DNA of 64,000 nucleotides from Escherichia phage EP1, in sequence record OR892555.1; one strand, given 5' to 3'. Shown here in pieces: positions 42,975 to 50,356 of the stretch. Each line of letters begins with the position of its first letter. Positions within the stretch are counted from its first letter, which is position 1. The position numbers and the translations under genes were made by a program. The notes under the pieces were generated by a model that was not told the DNA's origin, did not search any database, and saw nothing but the letters and a program-made list of their open reading frames with translations.

Positions 42975-43195
42975 TGTATTTCTCCAAAATAATAAGTGAA
43001 TGGCTCTCCTGAAAAAAGACGGTGCAGAGACCGTCAAGGAGAAACCACAATGTATGCCAGAGACATACTGTATAAGTCTTCTTATAAAGTATACATCTGT
43101 AAAAAAGCCCTGTCTAAAAATACTCTTCGGTAGCGAAAGGAAGAATACTCGTAGCAGGGCGTTATTATTTTATTTTGAGAGAGAGTAAAATAATT

Positions 43196-43271
43196 TGGAG
43201 CGTCGAAAGGGAGTCGAACCCTCATAATCCTGTTTTGCAGACAGGTACATAGCCATTTCTGTCATCGACGC
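43196..43271 (-). tRNA. tRNA-Cys (anticodon GCA)
   Basis: Acceptor halves 43200-43206/43265-43271 pair; T-arm AAGGG-AGTCGAA-CCCTC (reverse-complement view); anticodon loop CUGCAAA; CCA encoded. Confidence 0.7.
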
Positions 43272-43277
43272 ATTAAT

Positions 43278-43369
43278 TGGAGGAAGATACCAGACTTGAA
43301 CTGGTACGCCGATTTCTCGGTTACTGACAGTTTAGCAAACTGTCCCCTTACCTTTAGGGTTAATCTTCC
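43278..43369 (-). tRNA. tRNA-Ser (anticodon GCU), long variable arm
   Basis: 92 nt; acceptor GGAAGAT/ATCTTCC; anticodon stem ACAGT/ACTGT with loop UUGCUAA. Confidence 0.7.
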
Positions 43370-43371
43370 AA

Positions 43372-44103
43372 TTATTTATTCAAGGCATCCTTCATTTCTG
43401 GAGTTGCAATTGAATCAATCACGCCAGATTTACAGGAATCATCAAACCAGTCTGGTAAGATACCTGCAAGGAAACCATTAATATTTGTTTTCAAGTAATC
43501 AGCAATCAAAGCCGCTTCATCTGCAATCATCTGAGCCACTTCATTAGCATAGGCAGTAATCTTTGCCATACCATCATTAATCGCTGTAACAGCTTGTGTA
43601 GCGAGGTCAGAGATGGTTGCTAGTCCTTTATCAATTGCATCCTGTAAGTCGCTTAGAACGCTGTTTACGGCATCTATAGAGGTATTAATCAAATCCATAG
43701 CCTTGTTACCGTATTCAGTAGCAACTCCCATGATTCCACTAAACGGTGTACAACCAACTTGTTCACCTGCTGCTCCCATAACATTAGAGTAACCTTTAGC
43801 TACTTGCATACGTTGTGAAAACTCATCTACAGACTTCTGTCCATATTGAGTCAGTGTGTTAGTTGTCGTTGTAGTGCTTCCAAGGCTAGTTGAGAAGCTA
43901 CTTAACAAGGCTGTAGTCAAACCAGCAGCAATAAGTTTATCTTTTACTGTAGGGTCTGATACCGAGCTAATAGAGCTTACTAATGAAGTAGAAGCGGCAA
44001 CTGTACCACCAAGAACTGCTGCACCAGTAATAAGAGGGTTAGAGAACCCGTTACCGGATTTAAGGAGACTGAAAATCTCTTTACCTTGTCCTGTCATCTC
44101 TTT
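43372..44103 (-). CDS. Ser/Thr/Ala-rich protein embedded in the tRNA array
   Basis: ORF trimmed to MKEMTGQ so it does not overlap the adjacent tRNA; low-complexity S/T-rich centre. Confidence 0.4.
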   Translation of the reverse strand, partial: KEMTGQGKEIFSLLKSGNGFSNPLITGAAVLGGTVAASTSLVSSISSVSDPTVKDKLIAAGLTTALLSSFSTSLGSTTTTTNTLTQYGQKSVDEFSQRMQVAKGYSNVMGAAGEQVGCTPFSGIMGVATEYGNKAMDLINTSIDAVNSVLSDLQDAIDKGLATISDLATQAVTAINDGMAKITAYANEVAQMIADEAALIADYLKTNINGFLAGILPDWFDDSCKSGVIDSIATPEMKDALNK

Positions 44104-44122
44104 CATTATGCACCTATAAAAT

Positions 44123-44199
44123 TGGTAGCCCATCGGGATTTGAACCCTGTTCTCATGTTTTTCAGACACGCGCTTTAACCATATAAGCTAATTGAGCTA
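44123..44199 (-). tRNA. tRNA, tentative Phe (anticodon GAA), atypical T-stem and acceptor/D-arm linker
   Basis: T-loop ATTTGAA with 3-bp GGG/CCC stem; anticodon loop CUGAAAA; acceptor TAGCTCA/TGGGCTA pairs with one G-U. Confidence 0.45.
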
Positions 44200-44206
44200 T
44201 TAAAAT

Positions 44207-44283
44207 TGGGGTGACCTACGGGAATCGAACCCGTATAGACCATGTTCACAGCATGGGTCATTATCCATTTATGATAAGGCCAC
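44207..44283 (-). tRNA. tRNA-His (anticodon GUG)
   Basis: T-arm ACGGG-AATCGAA-CCCGT; anticodon stem CCATG/CATGG with loop CUGUGAA; D-stem TCAT/ATGA. Confidence 0.7.
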
Positions 44284-44314
44284 ATGTAAGGACTCTCGTA
44301 AGAACCCTTAGAGG

Positions 44315-44390
44315 TGGCAGCAGCGTAAGGATTTGAACCTTAATCTTTCAGCTTCAGAGGCTGGAGCATTGCCAGTTATGCTACACTGCT
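44315..44390 (-). tRNA. tRNA-Gln (anticodon CUG)
   Basis: T-arm TAAGG-ATTTGAA-CCTTA; anticodon loop CUCUGAA; D-stem GCAT/ATGC. Confidence 0.65.
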
Positions 44391-44397
44391 ATTAATT

Positions 44398-44468
44398 TGG
44401 TACTCCATATCGGATTCGAACCGATACATAACACAGATTTTAAGTCTGGCCTCTCTGCCAATTGGAGT
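44398..44468 (-). tRNA. tRNA-like gene, anticodon loop reads UAA (Leu-type) but D-arm appears truncated
   Basis: Perfect T-arm ATCGG-ATTCGAA-CCGAT and 6-bp acceptor; only about 10 nt available for the D-arm. Confidence 0.4.
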
Positions 44469-44478
44469 AATGGAGCAT

Positions 44479-44554
44479 TGGCGGGGGATGTTGGAATTGA
44501 ACCAACTTCTTCGATTTCAAAGACCGAGGTTTTAACCTTGTAAACTAATCCCCT
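44479..44554 (-). tRNA. tRNA-Gln (anticodon UUG)
   Basis: T-arm GTTGG-AATTGAA-CCAAC; anticodon loop CUUUGAA; D-stem GTTT/AAAC. Confidence 0.6.
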
Positions 44555-44562
44555 TTAAATCT

Positions 44563-45120
44563 TTACTTTCTTAGTGGATGAATAAAGAATGCCAACATAA
44601 TTCTTTCCCTTGAGAATGCTCTTTCTTCTGGGACAACACTTTTAAGTTTCCATCCAACATAAATTCTCCAGTAAAACTGTTTACCAAAGACTTTAATTGA
44701 TGGGATAAAAGCGAATAATCCCCAAGCATTCCTATTCCACATCAGGAGATAACCTGTCTGATTATCTTCAGGGTTAGAACTTACGTTGATATTACCTTTC
44801 CACTTAGTAACATCTTTTACATCTCTTCCTAATACATGGTAAGAGAAGTTATAAGCTTTGTTTCTCCAGAGCCACCCAACTCTCTGCATATAAACACCAA
44901 GCTTACCAATCTTTCTAATCTTAGCCCATCGCTCAACGTGACCTTTGTCACCGTCAATTGGGTTATCATAAGTTTCCATCCATCTGAATCCAAAAGGTAG
45001 ATGGCCTTTCTTCTCACTGTAGAATGGAACAACAAAAGGTGCTAAGATTACTGCTAAGATTGCTGCAAATGGCTCTAGCAAAGCTAGGAAAATCCATGAA
45101 GCATACTTCAAATATCTCAT
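44563..45120 (-). CDS. membrane protein embedded in the tRNA array
   Basis: ORF trimmed to MRYLKYAS to avoid tRNA overlap; N-terminal TM segment ASWIFLALLEPFAAILAVILAPFVV. Confidence 0.4.
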   Translation of the reverse strand: MRYLKYASWIFLALLEPFAAILAVILAPFVVPFYSEKKGHLPFGFRWMETYDNPIDGDKGHVERWAKIRKIGKLGVYMQRVGWLWRNKAYNFSYHVLGRDVKDVTKWKGNINVSSNPEDNQTGYLLMWNRNAWGLFAFIPSIKVFGKQFYWRIYVGWKLKSVVPEERAFSRERIMLAFFIHPLRK

Positions 45121-45140
45121 TTTAAATAGCCTCTTTAAAT

Positions 45141-45216
45141 TGGTGCAGAATAAGGGATTCGAACCCCTATTAACAGCTTCGTAGACTGTTGCTCTATCCA
45201 TTTGAACTAATCCTGC
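45141..45216 (-). tRNA. tRNA-Arg (anticodon ACG)
   Basis: T-arm AAGGG-ATTCGAA-CCCCT; anticodon loop CUACGAA. Confidence 0.6.
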
Positions 45217-45330
45217 TTCCCTACGAGAACACCATACAGTTTTTCACAAACTTTGTTTTTACGTCTGTTTAGGTATGACGCTCTAAACTTTTTTGCGATG
45301 GAGTTATTGCTCATAGTGCTCTCCTCAAAT

Positions 45331-45408
45331 TGGTGTTCCAAGACGGATTCGAACCGTCACTAATACAAGGTTTGAGCTTGCATCCTCTGCCAATTGGGAT
45401 ACTGGAAC
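45331..45408 (-). tRNA. tRNA with anticodon CAA (Leu-type) but short variable region
   Basis: Well-formed cloverleaf in reverse complement (acceptor GTTCCAG/TTGGAAC, D-loop AATTGGCAG, T-loop TTCGAAT); anticodon loop CUCAAAC; 78 nt. Confidence 0.55.
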
Positions 45409-45410
45409 AT

Positions 45411-45485
45411 TGGTACTCGCTGAAGGAATTGAACCTTCTTTACCAACTTGTAAGGATGGGGCTTTACCGTATAAACTAAGCGAGT
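45411..45485 (-). tRNA. tRNA-Val (anticodon UAC)
   Basis: Acceptor ACTCGCT/AGCGAGT perfect; T-arm GAAGG-AATTGAA-CCTTC; anticodon loop CUUACAA. Confidence 0.65.
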
Positions 45486-45490
45486 ATGAA

Positions 45491-45578
45491 AAGAGGTCTG
45501 AAGTTGTGCCGCTAACTCAACTCCGTGGAATTTGTTACGGTCTTCAGTTGACTCAAGCGGTCTTTCACTCGACCTCTG
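45491..45578. ncRNA. structured element with acceptor-like terminal stem but no T-loop (candidate small RNA or degenerate tRNA)
   Basis: AGAGGTC (45492-45498) pairs with GACCTCT (45571-45577); internal hairpin CTGAAG...CTTCAG; fills a tRNA-sized gap in the array. Confidence 0.3.
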
Positions 45579-45581
45579 AAA

Positions 45582-45658
45582 TGGTGCTGCTCACAGGACT
45601 CGAACCTGCATTTCCATCCTTACAAGGGATGTGTAATAGCCAATTATACGAAAGCAGC
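45582..45658 (-). tRNA. tRNA-Thr (anticodon UGU)
   Basis: T-arm ACAGG-ACTCGAA-CCTGC; anticodon stem CATCC/GGATG with loop CUUGUAA. Confidence 0.7.
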
Positions 45659-45664
45659 ATTGTT

Positions 45665-45739
45665 TGGAGCATCCAGAGGGAATCGAACCCTCAACCTCAG
45701 TTTGGAAGACTGTAATTTTCCCGTTTAAACTATGGATGC
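45665..45739 (-). tRNA. tRNA-Gly (anticodon UCC)
   Basis: Acceptor GCATCCA/TGGATGC perfect; T-arm GAGGG-AATCGAA-CCCTC; anticodon loop CUUCCAA. Confidence 0.65.
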
Positions 45740-45745
45740 ACTAAT

Positions 45746-45821
45746 TGGTGGAGAAGCAGGGAATTGAACCCTGTACTTAAGTTTGCAAAACTTATGTTTT
45801 AACCATGTAAACTACATCCCC
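45746..45821 (-). tRNA. tRNA-Ala (anticodon UGC)
   Basis: T-arm CAGGG-AATTGAA-CCCTG; anticodon stem TAAGT/ACTTA with loop UUUGCAA. Confidence 0.65.
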
Positions 45822-45827
45822 AATGTT

Positions 45828-45903
45828 TGGTACAGGTGGAGGGAATTGAACCCATCATCTTACTGATTAAGAGTCAGCCGCATAACCATTTTGCTACACC
45901 TGC
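45828..45903 (-). tRNA. tRNA-Lys (anticodon CUU), tentative
   Basis: T-loop AATTGAA with GGG/CCC stem; anticodon loop CUCUUAA; acceptor ACAGGTG/CACCTGC. Confidence 0.55.
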
Positions 45904-45910
45904 ATTAATT

Positions 45911-45988
45911 TGGTAGGAGACAAGGGATTCGAACCCTCAAACACCAACTTCTAAGGATGGTAGGTTTACCAATTACCGTCAATCTCCC
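45911..45988 (-). tRNA. tRNA with anticodon UAG (Leu-type) but short variable region, structure partly unresolved
   Basis: T-arm AAGGG-ATTCGAA-CCCTC; acceptor with two G-U pairs; anticodon loop CUUAGAA; D-loop AATTGGTAA. Confidence 0.45.
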
Positions 45989-46052
45989 ATTAAATCTTTG
46001 TAGAGAACTGCTAAGACGCCAAAGCAACAATGGTATCAAATGCCTTAACAAT

Positions 46053-46080
46053 TCTCTAAAAAGACCTAACTGGTCTTTGC
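46053..46080 (-). terminator. hairpin, possible minus-strand terminator inside the tRNA array (weak)
   Basis: AAAGACC-taact-GGTCTTT stem followed by short U-run on the minus strand. Confidence 0.3.
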
Positions 46081-46229
46081 ATAGTCTTGTTTAATCCGGT
46101 GACTATAACCTTTGGAGAGCTTGATATTATCTCTTCTCCGTGACACCTACTAGGTGCTTTGTTGTGCGTGTACGACAATACACGAGGGAAACCGAACGCT
46201 GTACCAGAGCGTGGGCTTAAATCTCATTA

Positions 46230-46319
46230 GGCGGTAGATAAAGGAGTCGAACCCTCACCGTATCACTACAATGGCAATTGTTTTCAAGACAATTTGGCTT
46301 CCATTAGCCGCTATCTACC
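46230..46319 (-). tRNA. tRNA-Ser (anticodon UGA), long variable arm
   Basis: Acceptor GGTAGAT/ATCTACC; anticodon stem ATTGT/ACAAT with loop CUUGAAA; about 87 nt. Confidence 0.65.
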
Positions 46320-46332
46320 CCTAATAAGACTG

Positions 46333-46737
46333 TTAAACCTCTAACAGTCCTGCATGAACTTTCCTATGACAGTTAGAACACAGTACAACACATTTTCTAA
46401 CTTCTCTCTTAATAGTCCCTCTAGAGTAAGTCTTTAAATTGCTAGGTTCAAAGTCTTTTTCATTTGGGTCTAAATGGTGGAAGTCTAATGCTACTGGTTC
46501 AGATTCACCACAAACTCTGCATTTGCAGATTCTTTTGTATCGGTTAAGAAACTCTCTGTTTCTTTTTCTGTCAGCTACCGCCCTAATTTTCCTTTTAGCT
46601 TTATAAGTTGGGTCTTCTTGATACTTCTTAGAAGAGTATTTGGATTTGCAATCTTTGCATACTGACTGGTATCCATTACCACGCTTATGAAAACAACTTA
46701 AAGGTTTTTCTTGTGAGCATTTTCTACAAAGTTTCAT
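46333..46737 (-). CDS. HNH homing endonuclease inserted in the tRNA array
   Basis: Cys-rich zinc-binding N-terminus; HNH core DFHHLDPNEK ... CSNCHRKVH. Confidence 0.65.
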   Translation of the reverse strand: MKLCRKCSQEKPLSCFHKRGNGYQSVCKDCKSKYSSKKYQEDPTYKAKRKIRAVADRKRNREFLNRYKRICKCRVCGESEPVALDFHHLDPNEKDFEPSNLKTYSRGTIKREVRKCVVLCSNCHRKVHAGLLEV

Positions 46738-46751
46738 ACAAGTACCTATTC

Positions 46752-46822
46752 TGGCAGGGGTGTAGAGATTCGAACTCTAATCAAGAATTTTGGAGACTCT
46801 ATTGCTGCCTTAGCTCACCCCT
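46752..46822 (-). tRNA. tRNA-Trp (anticodon CCA), tentative
   Basis: Acceptor AGGGGTG/CACCCCT perfect; T-arm TAGAG-ATTCGAA-CTCTA; anticodon loop CUCCAAA; short D-arm. Confidence 0.6.
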
Positions 46823-46993
46823 ATTAACACTATAATTCGAAGCTTACCGTATTGTCACAACACTGTCAAGCCTCTTCTCAGATTATTTACATGTTCTGGA
46901 AAACATGAGATACAGACCACCTCCTTATGAAGTTGACTCATCTGAATCAACACGGAGACCCGCTAAGGTCGTCTAAGTAATCTGCTAACTAAT

Positions 46994-47070
46994 TGGCACA
47001 CCCTACAGGGCTCGAACCTGTAACTCAGTGCTTAGAAGGCACTTGCTCTATCCAATTGAACTAAGGGTGC
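46994..47070 (-). tRNA. tRNA-Arg (anticodon UCU)
   Basis: T-arm ACAGG-GCTCGAA-CCTGT; anticodon stem AGTGC/GCACT with loop CUUCUAA. Confidence 0.7.
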
Positions 47071-47320
47071 ATTCTTATCTTTAAAGGCTCTCTTAGAAAA
47101 CCCTTAAAGATGCCCACCTTATTAATCATACCGTGGGCGAGTACGCCAAATTCTTTGATGAGGGGTTGGAAGACCTCACTGGTGTTTAGCCTATTAAGCT
47201 ACTGCCAGAAAAACATTATCGTTTGCATTTATTTTAGTTTGCAAAAATAGACGCTACGCTAACGAAAACTAAGGTTACTATAAAGTGGTCACATCTGAAT
47301 GTCAACAACTTTATCGAATT

Positions 47321-47396
47321 TGGTAGTGGTAGCAGGAATCGAACCTGCGATGTTCGGTTATCAGCCGAGTGTTATGACCGTCTTAACTATACCACC
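47321..47396 (-). tRNA. tRNA-Ile (anticodon GAU)
   Basis: T-arm GCAGG-AATCGAA-CCTGC; anticodon loop CUGAUAA. Confidence 0.6.
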
Positions 47397-47398
47397 AT

Positions 47399-47475
47399 TG
47401 GAGGTTCAGATGGGATTCGAACCCACATTCATAGGGCTTATGAAACCCTTGCATTACCTTATCTGCGACTGAACC
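47399..47475 (-). tRNA. tRNA-Met (anticodon CAU), G-C-rich anticodon stem
   Basis: Acceptor GGTTCAG/CTGAACC perfect; T-arm ATGGG-ATTCGAA-CCCAC; anticodon stem AGGGC/ACCCT with loop UUCAUAA. Confidence 0.65.
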
Positions 47476-47554
47476 ATAATAAGTTGCCCTTTGGAGAAGA
47501 ACTATTGAGTGGGTGTTTCCAGCCGCGCAGGTGTTCTTCAGTTAAGGGCGAATT
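47476..47554. ncRNA. structured element with acceptor-like terminal stem but no T-loop (candidate small RNA)
   Basis: TTGCCCT (about 47484-47490) pairs with AGGGCGA (about 47544-47550); shares a TTCAGTT motif with the element at 45491. Confidence 0.25.
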
Positions 47555-47630
47555 TGGTAGGAGTGGAGGGATTCGAACCCGTCGCCTGTCAGATTAAAAG
47601 TCTGCCGCATCACCATTCTGCTACACTCCC
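47555..47630 (-). tRNA. tRNA-Lys (anticodon UUU)
   Basis: T-loop ATTCGAA with GGG/CCC stem; anticodon stem TCAGA/TCTGC with loop CUUUUAA. Confidence 0.65.
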
Positions 47631-47775
47631 ATTAAATCATCTTTGCAGTAACCTACGCAAACCTTGCTAAAGGGTTTGTAGAGTCATTTCCTATTAAGCT
47701 AATCTAGAATCATGCTAAGGAAATTCATCGGCACTCATGGGACGACATTTAGCTCCATAAGCCACTGCAAAGAGG

Positions 47776-47907
47776 ATTACCAGACCGTTGTTTTATCTTA
47801 AGTGCTCCCATTACACCAACACGCCGTAACGTGTGAAGGAATCGAACCTTCGCCTTTTCTTTACCAGAGAAATAGATTGTTTAATACTTGCTGTAAACGG
47901 TCTTCTG
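47776..47907 (-). ncRNA. tRNA-like RNA lacking a canonical acceptor stem, enclosed by a long-range stem (candidate Y-RNA-like or pseudo-tRNA)
   Basis: Minus strand reads AGACCGTT...[anticodon-like arm TTTCT-CTGGTAA-AGAAA][T-arm GAAGG-TTCGATT-CCTTC][hairpin ACACG-TTACGG-CGTGT]...AACGGTCT; ends pair over 8 bp. Confidence 0.4.
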
Positions 47908-47919
47908 TAAATTTGTTGA

Positions 47920-47993
47920 GCCAGACCAAGTTTTAAATTATTCAAATTAATTGGCTTGAAATTTTTAAGTTGGCTTGCTGAATTTGGTCTTCT
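47920..47993 (-). repeat. hairpin spacer module, copy B1 (CAGAAGACCAA ... TTGGTCTGG)
   Basis: AGACCAA (47922-47928) complementary to TTGGTCT (47983-47989); conserved flanks shared with copies at 47779, 48388, 48544. Confidence 0.5.
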
Positions 47994-48055
47994 GCTCCTT
48001 TAAAGAATACTCGTAAGAACTCTTTAAGGGATGGGCTAAAAAGCCCTCTCAAATT

Positions 48056-48133
48056 TGGCGGTTACGAAGGGATTCGAACCCTCATCATCTCCCGTGACAG
48101 GGGAGTATTTTAACCAGATTAAACTACATAACC
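48056..48133 (-). tRNA. tRNA-Asp (anticodon GUC)
   Basis: T-arm AAGGG-ATTCGAA-CCCTC; anticodon stem CTCCC/GGGAG with loop CUGUCAC. Confidence 0.7.
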
Positions 48134-48139
48134 TTTGTT

Positions 48140-48227
48140 TGGTGCGCCGTGAAGGAGTCGAACCTACCGAGTCATAATGACAAGTGATTTACAGTCACCA
48201 CCGCTTCCATCTACGGGATAACGACGC
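48140..48227 (-). tRNA. tRNA-Tyr (anticodon GUA), long variable arm
   Basis: 88 nt; T-arm GAAGG-AGTCGAA-CCTAC; anticodon loop CUGUAAA. Confidence 0.65.
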
Positions 48228-48297
48228 ATTTTATTCTATTCAGGCTAAGGACTTGCACCTTACAAATCGGTGAGCATTACGCTTCTCTCCCAAATCT

Positions 48298-48374
48298 TGG
48301 CGGTGAGTTAGGGATTCGAACCCTATACCATTCGGTTAACAGCCGACCGCACATGCCTTATGTGCTTCCTCACC
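48298..48374 (-). tRNA. tRNA-Asn (anticodon GUU)
   Basis: T-arm TAGGG-ATTCGAA-CCCTA; anticodon loop CUGUUAA. Confidence 0.7.
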
Positions 48375-48387
48375 ATGTTTAGTATTG

Positions 48388-48449
48388 CCAGACCGTATCT
48401 TTTCATTTTTTCCTATAAAAATTTTGAGATTGCTGTAAACGGTCTTCTG
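48388..48449 (-). repeat. hairpin spacer module, copy A2 (CAGAAGACCGT ... ACGGTCTGG)
   Basis: AGACCGT (48390-48396) complementary to ACGGTCT (48439-48445); lies between tRNA-Asn and the CAU tRNA. Confidence 0.5.
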
Positions 48450-48455
48450 CAAATT

Positions 48456-48532
48456 TGGAGGCGGGTGTTGGAGTCGAACCAACCGTTACCATGCTAATGA
48501 GACATGTGAGACACCCTTTCTCTATACCCGCG
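48456..48532 (-). tRNA. tRNA with anticodon CAU (Met, fMet or Ile-lysidine type)
   Basis: T-arm GTTGG-AGTCGAA-CCAAC; D-stem GAGA/TCTC; anticodon loop CUCAUUA; position 1-72 mismatched. Confidence 0.6.
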
Positions 48533-48543
48533 ATTCTTAATGA

Positions 48544-48607
48544 CCAGACCAAGTTTTATTTTCTATAAGCGAAGAAAGTTTTTTAACTTGCTGAATTTGG
48601 TCTTCTG
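48544..48607 (-). repeat. hairpin spacer module, copy B2 (CAGAAGACCAA ... TTGGTCTGG)
   Basis: AGACCAA (48546-48552) complementary to TTGGTCT (48597-48603). Confidence 0.5.
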
Positions 48608-48614
48608 TCAAATT

Positions 48615-48689
48615 TGGAGTCGTAGACGGGATTCGAACCCGCGAGCAACTGATTGAAGGTCAGGTGGCTAACCATTTGCCTTCTACGAC
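48615..48689 (-). tRNA. tRNA-Glu (anticodon UUC), tentative (C at position 33)
   Basis: Acceptor GTCGTAG/CTACGAC perfect; T-arm ACGGG-ATTCGAA-CCCGC; anticodon loop CCUUCAA. Confidence 0.55.
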
Positions 48690-48696
48690 ATTAATT

Positions 48697-48773
48697 TGGT
48701 CTCCGTTGAGGGAGTTGAACCCTCGACCCCTTGCTCCCAAAGCAAGTGCTCTGCCAAACTGAGCTAAACGGAA
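48697..48773 (-). tRNA. tRNA-Pro (anticodon UGG)
   Basis: T-arm GAGGG-AGTTGAA-CCCTC; anticodon stem CTTGC/GCAAG with loop UUUGGGA. Confidence 0.7.
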
Positions 48774-48940
48774 ATAATTCTTTTCAAACTCTATGTAACC
48801 ACTTTAACATTATTTTTTAGTGGTTGTCAAGAACTTTTTTAAAATATTTTTCAGTATCTTAGAAAAACTCTCGATTTCGTTTTTATGTAGAACATATTAA
48901 AGGGTATCAAACAATTTGTCAATACCCTTTTTAAAACTTT

Positions 48941-50356
48941 TTACCAGATGTAACGGTCAATCATTACTGCTTTGAGCATTACGCTGATTGGGTCAAACTT
49001 CTCACCACCAAGCAGAGCCTTTAAAGTGGCTGGAGAGAAACCTGATACCATCGCTACTCCGTTATCATTTACGGATACTTCGCAGTGACCATTACGGTTT
49101 GCTAAGTACCAGAATACCAGTTGTGGCATCTCATATCCAGCTTTTTCATACTTACTACGAATTACTTCGAAGTTTGTACGACCATTTGCCCCGTCAACCT
49201 GATTAAACTCCATATCAGAGAAGATAATAAGCTTACTTGGCATTGCTGCCTGAGTCAAGTTATTTCTTACACCAATTTCAAGAATACGGTCAAATGCTGC
49301 TTGTAGGTTTGTAGAACCATACTCAACATGACTCATAATCTGACGATGACGATTCTGTAAAGTGCCACTCAGGGTGATAAAGTGAGGTCTGTCTGAGTAA
49401 ATCATTAACTCGTCTTTAAAACAACCTGTATTGCGTTCTGAGACGTATAACGCCAGAGACACACCAATATCAAGAGCGGTTACTGAACCAAATGTTTCCC
49501 AAGTCATAGAGCATGATACATCTGTCATACAAAGGATGTTTTCACCATCAGCCATCCAGTTTGGTAGTGCTTTCCACTGTTCATTAGCAACTTGTGCTTT
49601 ACCACGCTGAACAGATTTAAGAACATCATAAGGGTATACAGCACCAGCATTAATCTTCGTCTCGCCCTTAGATAGAGCTTCAACGTAAGCTGCATAACGT
49701 TCACCATCTTTCTTACTGAACAGTTTTTGATAACGTGCAGCAGCCAGTGAAGGAATCTTACTGTAGTCAATCTCGCCAAAGTTATTTGTAGAGATTTTCT
49801 GTTCAACGGTGTCAGATAAAGCTGACAGCAGTGTACGGTACTCTTTCTCACTCAAGTTTGCAAATTTACAGAAACGTTTTACAAACTGCTTGTGGCGTGG
49901 TTTTACTCGTGGTAACCACTTAGCTGCTAAACATGCTGTATCAGGGTCTAACAAAGCTTCTTCTAAATGCTTGAAAGCATCTGTCTCATAACGAGTACCT
50001 ACGAAGATTTTGAAGTCATCGAAACGACCTAATTCAGAAATCTTATCCATGATACGAAGAACTTGGAAAGAATCCAGAATGTTATCTTCGATTGCTTGTA
50101 AGAGGACAGTTCGGAAAGCTTTACGCTCACCCATACCTTCTCGTACATCTCGCATATGCAGTAAAATACGAACTGCTACATCAACATCCTCACGCAAAGC
50201 TTTGTAGAACAAGTCTGGGAGAATCTCTACATTGTTACGGCTTGAACCAGCAGCTTTGTAGAAGTCTACCAAGGCAGACATTGATGATGTATGGTTAACA
50301 GCACCATTTTCAGTTCGCCCTGCATTGAGGTGCGAATGCTTAAATAAATCGCTCAT
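48941..50356 (-). CDS. Ro60-like protein: helical TROVE-like N-terminal region plus C-terminal vWA domain with MIDAS motif
   Basis: C-terminal MTDVSCSMTWE (DxSxS) ... GSTNLQAAF ... LVFWYLANRNGHCEVSVNDNGVAMVSGFS parallels the Ro60 vWA domain; 471 aa; directly upstream of the tRNA array on the same strand. Confidence 0.6.
   Translation of the reverse strand: MSDLFKHSHLNAGRTENGAVNHTSSMSALVDFYKAAGSSRNNVEILPDLFYKALREDVDVAVRILLHMRDVREGMGERKAFRTVLLQAIEDNILDSFQVLRIMDKISELGRFDDFKIFVGTRYETDAFKHLEEALLDPDTACLAAKWLPRVKPRHKQFVKRFCKFANLSEKEYRTLLSALSDTVEQKISTNNFGEIDYSKIPSLAAARYQKLFSKKDGERYAAYVEALSKGETKINAGAVYPYDVLKSVQRGKAQVANEQWKALPNWMADGENILCMTDVSCSMTWETFGSVTALDIGVSLALYVSERNTGCFKDELMIYSDRPHFITLSGTLQNRHRQIMSHVEYGSTNLQAAFDRILEIGVRNNLTQAAMPSKLIIFSDMEFNQVDGANGRTNFEVIRSKYEKAGYEMPQLVFWYLANRNGHCEVSVNDNGVAMVSGFSPATLKALLGGEKFDPISVMLKAVMIDRYIW

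Follow-up and report, generated by a model that had tools for sequence, protein, structure and literature searches.

Three genes in the tRNA cluster of a Felix-O1-like phage are probably functional leucine tRNAs of the short-variable-loop type

We analyzed a stretch of 64,000 nucleotides from Escherichia phage EP1 (OR892555.1), referred to below as the window; its source is a Felix-O1-like myovirus. It contains a large tRNA gene cluster, in which three genes carry a leucine anticodon (NAG or YAA):

43196-48773, reverse strand: tRNA gene cluster containing the three leucine genes (ARAGORN, Rfam)
44398-44476, reverse strand: tRNA-Leu(UAA), type I (ARAGORN; Rfam, 47.5 bits), anticodon at 44440-44442
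45331-45408, reverse strand: tRNA-Leu(CAA), type I (ARAGORN; Rfam, 44 bits), anticodon at 45372-45374
45911-45988, reverse strand: tRNA-Leu(UAG), type I (ARAGORN; Rfam, 40 bits), anticodon at 45951-45953

The cluster is flanked by the large terminase gene on one side and a DUF2828/DUF7788 gene on the other, and its gene order matches that of Felix O1. It comprises 24 tRNAs called by ARAGORN, a tRNA-Glu recovered only by Rfam, and weak Trp-like and Tyr-like elements, with small ORFs interspersed among the tRNAs; the two tRNA-Ser genes, of 92 and 90 nt, retain long hairpin arms. With their encoded CCA, the ARAGORN calls for Leu(UAA), Leu(CAA), and Leu(UAG) are 79, 78, and 78 nt long, respectively (76, 75, and 75 nt without it). 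All three score well above the RF00005 gathering score of 29, and their matches in a 6-kb search had E-values of 5e-8 to 5e-6; chance is excluded for these matches.

The ARAGORN anticodons are the same as those obtained by hand folding in the initial annotation, and neither other anticodons nor an overlooked class II tRNA-Leu came to light: no long-armed tRNA-Leu was found in the window by ARAGORN and Rfam. As drawn by ARAGORN, the variable regions measure 7 nt in Leu(UAA), 5 nt in Leu(CAA), and 4 nt in Leu(UAG) (overall ranges of 7, 5-6, and 4-5 nt), whereas class II tRNAs have a hairpin-forming variable arm of more than 10 nt. The hand folds were essentially right in that the long arm of the host's class II tRNA-Leu is absent. 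The sizes first given (71-78 nt, with variable regions of 4-6 nt) were correct as to shortness, but the first gene is 76 nt plus CCA, and the variable regions span 4-7 nt. The three genes agree with the definition of type I tRNA-Leu (Fan et al., 2019), that is, a loop of about 5 nt within a canonical cloverleaf, although the loops of the UAA and CAA genes deviate from the usual 5 nt of the family.

Leu(UAA) has a D arm whose stem is 3 bp and whose loop is 11 nt (CAAUUGGCAGA), together with A73 and a G1.U72 pair; Leu(CAA) likewise has a 3-bp D stem, an 11-nt D loop, and A73. The D arm of the UAA gene had been thought truncated, but this was an artifact, because the gene had been ended at 44468 instead of 44476 and so lacked 8 nt at its 5′ end; its actual D arm is like that of E. 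coli leuZ, leuW, and leuX. Leu(UAG) is the least regular of the three: ARAGORN draws its D stem slipped, with 3 nt connecting the acceptor and D stems, there is a U30.U40 mismatch in the anticodon stem, and position 37 is A instead of G; A73 and G1.U72 are both present. The long connector had been noticed by hand, and ARAGORN reproduces the 3 nt both in Leu(UAG) and in the Phe gene at 44123-44198. Single-sequence thermodynamic folding did not set the cloverleaf apart: it gave non-significant z-scores of -0.8 to -2.2, with a near-cloverleaf minimum-energy fold for Leu(CAA) only, the UAA and UAG genes giving non-cloverleaf folds when each sequence was folded alone; since these tRNAs are AU-rich, such folding is uninformative, and we used comparative evidence instead.

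We aligned 61 short tRNA-Leu sequences. U8, G18, G19, the D-loop A, U33, A35, U48, T54, T55, C56, A58, and A73 are invariant among them, and A14 and A15 are found in at least 90%. Bases are paired in 97% of the alignment cells (57% when shuffled), all 20 of the 20 cloverleaf pairs change on both sides, and the covariation score is 1.04, shuffled alignments scoring 0.25 and slid registers no more than 0.19; thus the ARAGORN folds and the 61 homologues give a cloverleaf backed by covariation, with the universal tRNA nucleotides in place. The conserved positions of the family coincide with the identity set of E. coli LeuRS (A73, A14, A15-U48, G18G19, and the D-loop A, which is A20a; PMC9976931; PMC6614811), and this set is present in all three genes. 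We also tried the AAUUGGYAGA D loop as a mark of descent from class II tRNA-Leu, but dropped it because a pattern scan of IMG/VR showed that phage tRNAs for Thr, Lys, Trp, and Asn commonly have it. The assignment to leucine rests on A15-U48, A73, the 3-bp stem with its 11-nt loop, and published isotype scores.

Leu(UAA) occurs at 99% identity or more in 211 phage records, and identical genes annotated as tRNA-Leu are found in more than 200 related phages. Both Leu(UAA) and Leu(CAA) are 100% identical to their Felix O1 counterparts, although the aligned non-tRNA DNA is 86.8% identical; Leu(CAA) is also identical in wV8, Moogle, and Sf14. In the Ounavirinae (Felix O1, wV8, Moogle, Sf14, and phiSUSP1), the tRNA-Leu genes are so annotated and have the same cluster position and order, and the Leu(UAG) genes are 88.5-100% identical to that of the window, which carries a non-Felix allele whose U30.U40 mismatch is common to T5; nothing else of substance differs. 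As compared with Felix O1, whose stem is fully paired, four anticodon-stem pairs of Leu(UAG) differ, with both sides changed, and these substitutions are, by their pattern, compensatory. To judge from these comparisons, all three genes are under strong purifying selection. Some homologues in relatives are labeled tRNA-Pseudo or tRNA-OTHER. Comparison with related phages, as the initial annotation had proposed, bore out the leucine assignment, since tRNAscan-SE records the homologous 77-78 nt genes of phiEa104 as tRNA-Leu, with scores of about 50.

The least probable of the alternatives we weighed is that the three genes are false calls by the tRNA finders or pseudogenes in decay. Compared with the rest of the cluster, their Rfam scores are on the low side (40-47.5 bits), the labels just mentioned point the same way, and degenerate neighbors (the Tyr-like and Phe genes) do exist in the cluster; but decay would hardly leave 100% identity across phages whose flanks diverge by 13%, compensatory changes in Leu(UAG), and strong family-wide covariation at every pair. 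Conservation and covariation, as read from the alignments, already contradict this explanation.

Published isotype scores bear on the amino acid. In the tRNAscan-SE table for Sf14, whose genes are close relatives, the Leu model is best for all three (67.4, 49.1, and 60.2; PMC12482277). For Leu_TAG, the margin is narrow, as Ile2 (65.7) and Lys (63.4) come close to Leu (67.4; PMC12482277), which could be taken to mean that anticodon and identity are mismatched, that an amino acid different from leucine is attached to the tRNAs, and that UUR or CUA codons have another meaning in the phage. We regard this as highly improbable: the leucine set is matched in A73, A15-U48, and the layout of the D loop; there is no G3.U70 and no long arm for SerRS; and other synthetases would be expected, from established identity rules, to read anticodons that are absent here (PMC9976931).

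Short tRNA-Leu homologues are found well beyond the Felix O1 group, in phages of Erwinia, Cronobacter, Xanthomonas, Enterococcus, and Mycobacterium as well as in T5; the same architecture is seen in T5, phiEa104, EspYZU15, X1, Bop, and prophiGD54-2, and also in IMG/VR contigs and bacterial chromosomes. Among 90 loci on viral contigs, a small and non-random sample located via non-Leu tRNAs, there were 10 short and 34 long tRNA-Leu genes (about one quarter short). Among the bacterial-genome matches listed, 117 of 120 had a short tRNA-Leu, mostly as a lone chromosomal gene in Actinomycetota; we therefore rejected the idea that the short form is phage-specific. The premise of the initial annotation that bacterial tRNA-Leu is class II was likewise too strong, given the type I gene of Streptomyces coelicolor (PMC6614811) and those on many actinomycetotal chromosomes. 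The UAA and CAA cores have a mean identity of about 0.65 to bacterial type I tRNA-Leu, as opposed to about 0.5 to type II. Leu(UAA) had no blastn match in 5,426 E. coli genomes, so blastn, at its sensitivity, points to no source in the host or a prophage. The genes are thus already known, identical ones having been annotated in Felix O1 and related phages, and type I tRNA-Leu has been published, in Streptomyces (Fan et al., 2019; PMC6614811); in the literature searched we found no discussion of arm-less tRNA-Leu in phages, and the papers on Sf14 and T5-related tRNAs never mention the variable region (PMC12482277; PMC10264068).

Four known systems offer useful comparisons. Type I tRNA-Leu(CAA) of S. 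coelicolor is similar in that a loop of about 5 nt replaces the hairpin in an otherwise canonical cloverleaf (PMC6614811); type I genes of this kind coexist with type II isoacceptors or replace them. The S. coelicolor tRNA, however, has its gene on the chromosome, and the LeuRS that charges it has a special leucine-specific domain (PMC6614811), whereas the genes described here are phage-borne, belong to a phage of an enterobacterial host, and are type I in all three isoacceptors, two of them with loops of 6-7 nt. T5/BF23, from a different virus family (Demerecviridae), has 77-nt type I tRNA-Leu(UAG) and tRNA-Leu(UAA) and is without a CAA isoacceptor; its Leu(UAG) is 83.8% identical to that of the window and has both the CUUAGAA loop and the U30.U40 mismatch in common with it, but its connector is the regular 2 nt, its D-stem register is regular, and its variable loop is 5 nt long. 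E. coli leuZ (UAA), leuX (CAA), and leuW (UAG) share with the phage tRNAs their anticodons, A73, U48, and a 3-bp D stem with an 11-nt D loop (RAAUYGGUAGA); in addition, leuZ has G1.U72, and the E. coli readers of UUR have A37. They differ in having a variable arm of 13-15 nt with a hairpin, in core identity (only about 50%, with no blastn-level similarity), and, for leuW, in having G37 where the phage Leu(UAG) has A37. In mitochondrial tRNAs, the D and T loops are often degenerate; in the phage tRNAs, by contrast, G18G19, a TTCRA T loop (T54 T55 C56 A58), and a full-size D loop are all preserved. Animal mitochondrial tRNA-Leu resembles the phage genes in being without a long arm and in using A73 for identity (PMC9976931; PMC6614811), and human mt-tRNA-Leu has a floppy anticodon branch (PMC9976931).

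Overall, the three genes are probably functional type I leucine tRNAs of a Felix-O1-like phage. The initial annotation had suggested that they might be non-canonical decoders or tRNA mimics, a suggestion for which we found no support: the canonical cloverleaf covaries, the nucleotides for LeuRS identity are kept, and there are signs of strong purifying selection. What a mimic or decoy would be expected to lack is there: the anticodon loop is of 7 nt and includes U33, position 73 is A, and the CCA is encoded. A single YrlA-like match, at 44137-44261, had an E-value of 0.51 and overlaps other tRNAs. Because type I tRNA-Leu is a widespread and conserved family, the three genes are better regarded as ordinary working tRNAs.

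As ordinary tRNAs, they would be transcribed along with the rest of the minus-strand cluster, with CCA already encoded, and the LeuRS of the host (E. coli or Salmonella) would attach leucine to them. LeuRS would read A73 and the tertiary core (U8-A14, A15-U48, G18G19 with the T loop, and the D-loop A), and neither the anticodon nor the long arm; tRNA-Leu could lose the arm because LeuRS would have no need of it. SerRS depends on the long arm of tRNA-Ser. The absent hairpin would then be the defining trait of an old and widespread tRNA-Leu lineage (in phages, tRNA arrays, and Actinomycetota), and no local defect. In decoding, the UAA tRNA would read UUA and UUG, the CAA tRNA UUG, and the UAG tRNA CUA and CUG, possibly also CUU. 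Such codons are much commoner in this AT-rich phage than in E. coli; TTA, TTG, and CTA make up 47% of the Leu codons in 66 ORFs of the window.

The step from these tRNAs to leucine is one that we infer. According to a review, E. coli tRNA-Leu can dispense with its long arm, and arm-less variants stay active with EcLeuRS (PMC9976931); type I tRNA-Leu of Streptomyces is leucylated (PMC6614811). Fan et al. (2019), however, obtained no in vitro leucylation of Streptomyces type I tRNA-Leu(CAA) with 1 nM E. coli LeuRS, described ScoLeuRS as the only prokaryotic LeuRS that charges both types, and found that variable-loop length matters; according to the same group, tRNAs with a large variable loop are favored by the leucine-specific domain of EcLeuRS (PMC6614811). 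Because EcLeuRS failed on the Streptomyces tRNA, charging by an enterobacterial LeuRS should not be taken for granted, and both this failure and the domain's preference could be used to argue that the phage RNAs are produced without being substrates of enterobacterial LeuRS, acting instead as non-translating decoys for defense or toxin proteins or as regulators. We consider this very unlikely, given the activity of the arm-less E. coli variants; moreover, a decoy needs no A73, A15-U48, CCA, U33, A35, or codon-matched leucine anticodons, all of which are conserved, and the three isoacceptors are kept across more than 200 genomes.

In at least three lineages of enterobacterial phages (the Felix O1 group, T5, and Seunavirus), all tRNA-Leu genes are of the arm-less form. 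This sole use by E. coli phages fits awkwardly with the failure of EcLeuRS on the Streptomyces type I tRNA, and for this reason the phage versions may hold compensating LeuRS determinants. That such determinants exist and that the loss of the arm was selected as immunity to arm-recognizing factors is, as a combined proposal, unlikely. Its second half matches an explanation that refines the one we prefer, leaving the tRNAs functional for leucine and giving another reason for their architecture: loss of the arm would be a counter-defense that evades a nuclease, or some other factor of the host or a competitor, which recognizes or cuts the type II arm, so that leucine codons would still be readable when the tRNA-Leu of the host is inactivated. 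T-even infection leads to cleavage of a host tRNA-Leu. The tRNA-Leu genes of Felix-O1-like phages and T5 are all arm-less while those of their hosts are armed, and the anticodon loop of Leu(UAG) departs from the host version at three positions. It is also consistent with this explanation that phage tRNAs show differences from those of the host for which evasion of tRNA nucleases has been proposed (PMC10264068; PMC13056530), and that VapC52 cuts within the long variable loop of Mycobacterium tuberculosis tRNA-Ser, a type II tRNA (PMC13273310). On the other hand, we found no enterobacterial nuclease aimed at the tRNA-Leu arm in the literature searched, many phages retain type II tRNA-Leu, tRNA-Ser and tRNA-Tyr still have their arms in the same clusters of related phages, and the lone, housekeeping-looking arm-less tRNA-Leu of many Actinomycetota needs no defense story. 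Counter-defense is therefore an unlikely explanation, if the least unlikely of the alternatives.

For annotation, the three genes are to be treated as normal phage tRNA-Leu genes. If the counter-defense explanation were true, the contest between phage tRNAs and tRNA-targeting immunity would be fought over the variable arm as well as the anticodon loop.

We identified a minus-strand tRNA gene cluster at 43.2-48.8 kb of the window, in which ARAGORN predicts 24 tRNAs and the Rfam tRNA model (gathering score 29) gives 25 matches. Three of its genes carry leucine anticodons and a short variable region:

44398-44476, minus strand: tRNA-Leu(UAA), 79 nt including CCA, Rfam 47.5 bits
45331-45408, minus strand: tRNA-Leu(CAA), 78 nt including CCA, Rfam 44 bits
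45911-45988, minus strand: tRNA-Leu(UAG), 78 nt including CCA, Rfam 40 bits

All three genes have A73, a CCA in the DNA, a 7-bp acceptor stem, a 7-nt anticodon loop with U33, and the T arm GGTTCGAATCC; in the ARAGORN drawings, the variable region is 7 nt in Leu(UAA), 5 nt in Leu(CAA), and 4 nt in Leu(UAG). The initial annotation had assigned the same anticodons as ARAGORN and placed the CAA and UAG genes exactly, with the UAA gene ending 8 nt short on its 5′ side (44468 instead of 44476); the truncated D arm reported for Leu(UAA) was due to this misplaced end, and the actual D arm is an 11-nt loop, CAAUUGGCAGA, on a 3-bp stem. ARAGORN also places 3 nt between the acceptor and D stems of Leu(UAG) and of the neighboring tRNA-Phe, where the hand-made folds had 3-4 nt. 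The short architecture is real, and the hand-made folds were right apart from the one boundary. A relaxed Rfam search of 43000-49000 found no long-armed tRNA-Leu, so the phage's leucine set is wholly short-armed; the cluster's two tRNA-Ser genes (92 and 90 nt) keep the long arm.

The 5.8-kb cluster region matches Ounavirinae myoviruses in 360 records, with 94.6% identity to phiSUSP1 and 80-97% to Felix O1 (a related Salmonella phage), wV8, Moogle-like and Erwinia phages. At 99% identity or more, the Leu(UAA)-Gln segment recurs in 211 records and Leu(CAA) in 159; Leu(UAG) has two alleles among related phages. Where the tRNA sets of these phages are annotated, the homologs are called tRNA-Leu: for example, the phiEa104 record contains tRNA-Leu genes of 77-78 nt with tRNAscan-SE scores of about 50, and in a 2025 paper on the tRNAs of the closely related phage Sf14, which never mentions the variable region, isotype scores from tRNAscan-SE rank Leu top for all three genes (PMC12482277). 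A switch of identity, with the three tRNAs charged with an amino acid other than leucine, is highly improbable. Comparison with Felix O1 revealed 100% identity for both Leu(UAA) and Leu(CAA), against 86.8% in the aligned non-tRNA DNA; Leu(UAG) shares 88.5%, and eight of its nine differences lie in the anticodon stem, where four pairs are altered on both sides (the stem is fully paired in Felix O1 and has a U30·U40 mismatch in the window). As read from the sequences, this pattern of identity and paired changes bears the mark of selection on an RNA that folds and functions, and we give almost no weight to the reading of the three genes as pseudogenes.

The U30·U40 mismatch is common to T5 and Cronobacter phage EspYZU15 (window 45911-45988, minus strand; comparison loci L001, 5997-6073, and L004, 5001-5077). 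The anticodon loop of Leu(UAG), CUUAGAA, has A37, versus G37 (the m1G37 site) in E. coli leuW.

Short tRNA-Leu, elsewhere of 74-77 nt (without or with CCA), are also found in the following phages:

T5: UAA and UAG
Erwinia phage phiEa104: CAA, AAG, and UAA
Cronobacter phage EspYZU15: UAA and UAG
Xanthomonas phage X1: short CAG alongside long UAG
Enterococcus phage Bop: short UAG alongside long UAA
Mycobacterium prophage prophiGD54-2: UAG and CAA

Scanning IMG/VR with a sequence pattern and running ARAGORN on the matches yielded at least 64 distinct short tRNA-Leu. Across 61 aligned sequences (including the window's three), U8, G18, G19, the D-loop A, U33, A35, U48, T54, T55, C56, A58, and A73 are invariant, and A14 and A15 occur in 90% or more; because the search pattern prescribed some D- and T-loop positions, their conservation is partly by construction, while the stems, U48, and A73 lay outside the pattern. 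A 7/3/5/5-bp cloverleaf on the 61 sequences gives 97.0% standard-paired cells (57% when shuffled, and 36-48% in slid registers), two-sided changes at all 20 of its 20 pairs, and a covariation score of 1.04 versus 0.25 shuffled. In a small, non-random viral sample, the tRNA-Leu at loci picked via a non-Leu tRNA number 10 short and 34 long; at these loci, 49 of 51 tRNA-Ser genes are long (at least 85 nt), as are 30 of 32 tRNA-Tyr genes (at least 79 nt). Type II tRNA-Leu, with the long arm, are also present in phages of Gammaproteobacteria.

We also scanned bacteria, one genome per species, for a short gap from a Leu-type anticodon loop to the T loop; 117 of the 120 matches listed (that is, at least 117) are short tRNA-Leu. 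Among these listed matches, most are lone chromosomal genes, mainly tRNA-Leu(UAA) of Actinomycetota (Mycobacterium, Nocardia, Gordonia, Rhodococcus, Arthrobacter or Pseudarthrobacter, and Rothia); Bifidobacterium has the CAA form, and others lie in dense arrays (8-26 tRNAs per 8 kb) in Acidobacteriota, cyanobacteria, and Planctomycetota. The lone actinobacterial genes contradict the claim of a review that animal mitochondria are the sole exception to a long arm in tRNA-Leu. Core identity of the window's UAA and CAA genes averages about 0.65 to bacterial type I tRNA-Leu, and about 0.5 to E. coli or phage type II. The lone arm-less tRNA-Leu(UAA) is strongly conserved across Mycobacterium, Nocardia, Gordonia, Rhodococcus, Arthrobacter, and Rothia (bacterial loci L128-L247).

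E. coli leuZ, leuW, and leuX are 85-87 nt long with a variable arm of 13-15 nt, whereas the phage genes are short-armed; common to both are a 3-bp D stem, an 11-nt D loop (GAAUYGGUAGA), A73, and U48 directly 5′ of the T stem, and leuZ and two of the three phage genes have a G1·U72 wobble. Core identity between phage and E. coli tRNA-Leu is only about 50%, and blastn of Leu(UAA) against 5,426 E. coli genomes gave no match, which argues that the phage genes are not recent captures of host genes. The G1·U72 pair, which may be a feature related to leucyl-tRNA synthetase (LeuRS), closes the acceptor stem in 28 of the 61 aligned type I tRNA-Leu (the UAA and UAG genes of the window among them) and in leuZ (E. 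coli locus L248, 1316-1402).

Elsewhere in the cluster, Rfam matches without an ARAGORN call include a tRNA-Glu(UUC) at 48614-48689 (minus strand, 53.7 bits), whose anticodon loop CCUUCAA has C instead of the near-universal U at position 33; this is not a sequencing error, since the allele recurs at 100% identity in Erwinia phage phiEa21-4 and at 99% or more in 29 phage records. A long-armed class II sequence resembling tRNA-Tyr(GUA) at 48145-48225 (minus strand), at 22.8 bits under the Rfam threshold and also without an ARAGORN call, is possibly a decaying gene; the Felix O1 record marks tRNA-Tyr as a pseudogene. Two weak matches, again not called by ARAGORN, are located at 46755-46822 (minus strand, 32.6 bits; by eye a tRNA-Trp(CCA) with G73, encoded CCA, and a short D arm, 15 nt from acceptor to anticodon stem) and 47827-47890 (minus strand, 30.6 bits; degenerate-looking by eye). 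The tRNA-Phe(GAA) at 44123-44198 (minus strand, 39 bits) is irregular, with an A7·A66 mismatch, a 3-nt connector 5′ of the D stem, and, in its T arm, one mismatch and a 6-nt loop; its Sf14 homolog has a very low Phe isotype score, 13.8 (PMC12482277). A very weak YrlA (Y-RNA-like) match at 44137-44261 (minus strand, 21.5 bits, E = 0.51) overlaps the His and Phe tRNAs, and a sub-threshold permuted tmRNA match at 47194-47379 (minus strand; 38.7 bits, gathering score 47), intergenic and adjoining tRNA-Ile, is probably driven by its tRNA-like part. Minus-strand ORFs amid the tRNA genes encode DUF7217 (43372-44133, 253 aa), DUF7338 (44563-45201, 212 aa), and a 134-aa protein without a Pfam match (46333-46737); relatives have HNH endonucleases annotated at comparable positions. 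The gene directly upstream of the cluster (48941-50356, minus strand) encodes a 471-aa DUF2828/DUF7788 protein, and the Felix O1 gene just before tRNA-Pro, matched by position alone, is annotated as "RNA-binding protein".

The three genes most likely encode working leucine tRNAs. They would be transcribed along with the cluster (promoter-like sites lie 5′ of it at 48922-48894 and 48830-48801, though sites of this kind are no more frequent than chance predicts), processed at both ends with no need for CCA addition, since CCA is encoded, and charged by the host LeuRS via A73 and the tertiary core. Leu(UAA) would then decode UUA and UUG; Leu(CAA), UUG; and Leu(UAG), CUA and CUG, perhaps CUU too. 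In the 66 window ORFs, TTA makes up 22.6% of leucine codons, TTG 16.4%, CTA 8.2%, CTT 28.7%, and CTG only 17.7%; in E. coli, CUG accounts for about half. Arm loss would be tolerated specifically in Leu because LeuRS is not dependent on the arm; SerRS does depend on it, and the long arm persists in tRNA-Ser and tRNA-Tyr of the same phage clusters. Counter-defense, a refinement of this reading, is an unlikely reason for the missing arm, and that the three RNAs serve as decoys is very unlikely.

A "type I" tRNA-Leu(CAA) of Streptomyces coelicolor is charged by its own LeuRS, and its 5-nt loop length matters (Fan et al., 2019, PMC6614811); within the literature searched, the term "type I tRNALeu" is used only there. 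Behra et al. (2019, PMC6582537) make brief mention of a tRNA-Leu(TAG) with a short loop, from a mycobacterial tRNA cluster. E. coli LeuRS did not charge the S. coelicolor type I tRNA-Leu at all in the assay of Fan et al. (PMC6614811). This result is genuine counter-evidence to the charging of the phage tRNA-Leu by enterobacterial LeuRS, which we infer, but it is outweighed, because LeuRS identity nucleotides are under strong purifying selection, the three isoacceptors match the phage codons, and the architecture recurs in phages of many hosts. The earlier suggestion of tRNA mimics or non-canonical decoders is unsupported: the three genes are type I tRNA-Leu, a kind described before, and identical copies are annotated in public phage genomes. 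The remaining interest is biochemical: it lies in the possible acceptance of arm-less tRNA-Leu by an ordinary E. coli-type LeuRS, in how this would work, and in why phages so often prefer the arm-less form.
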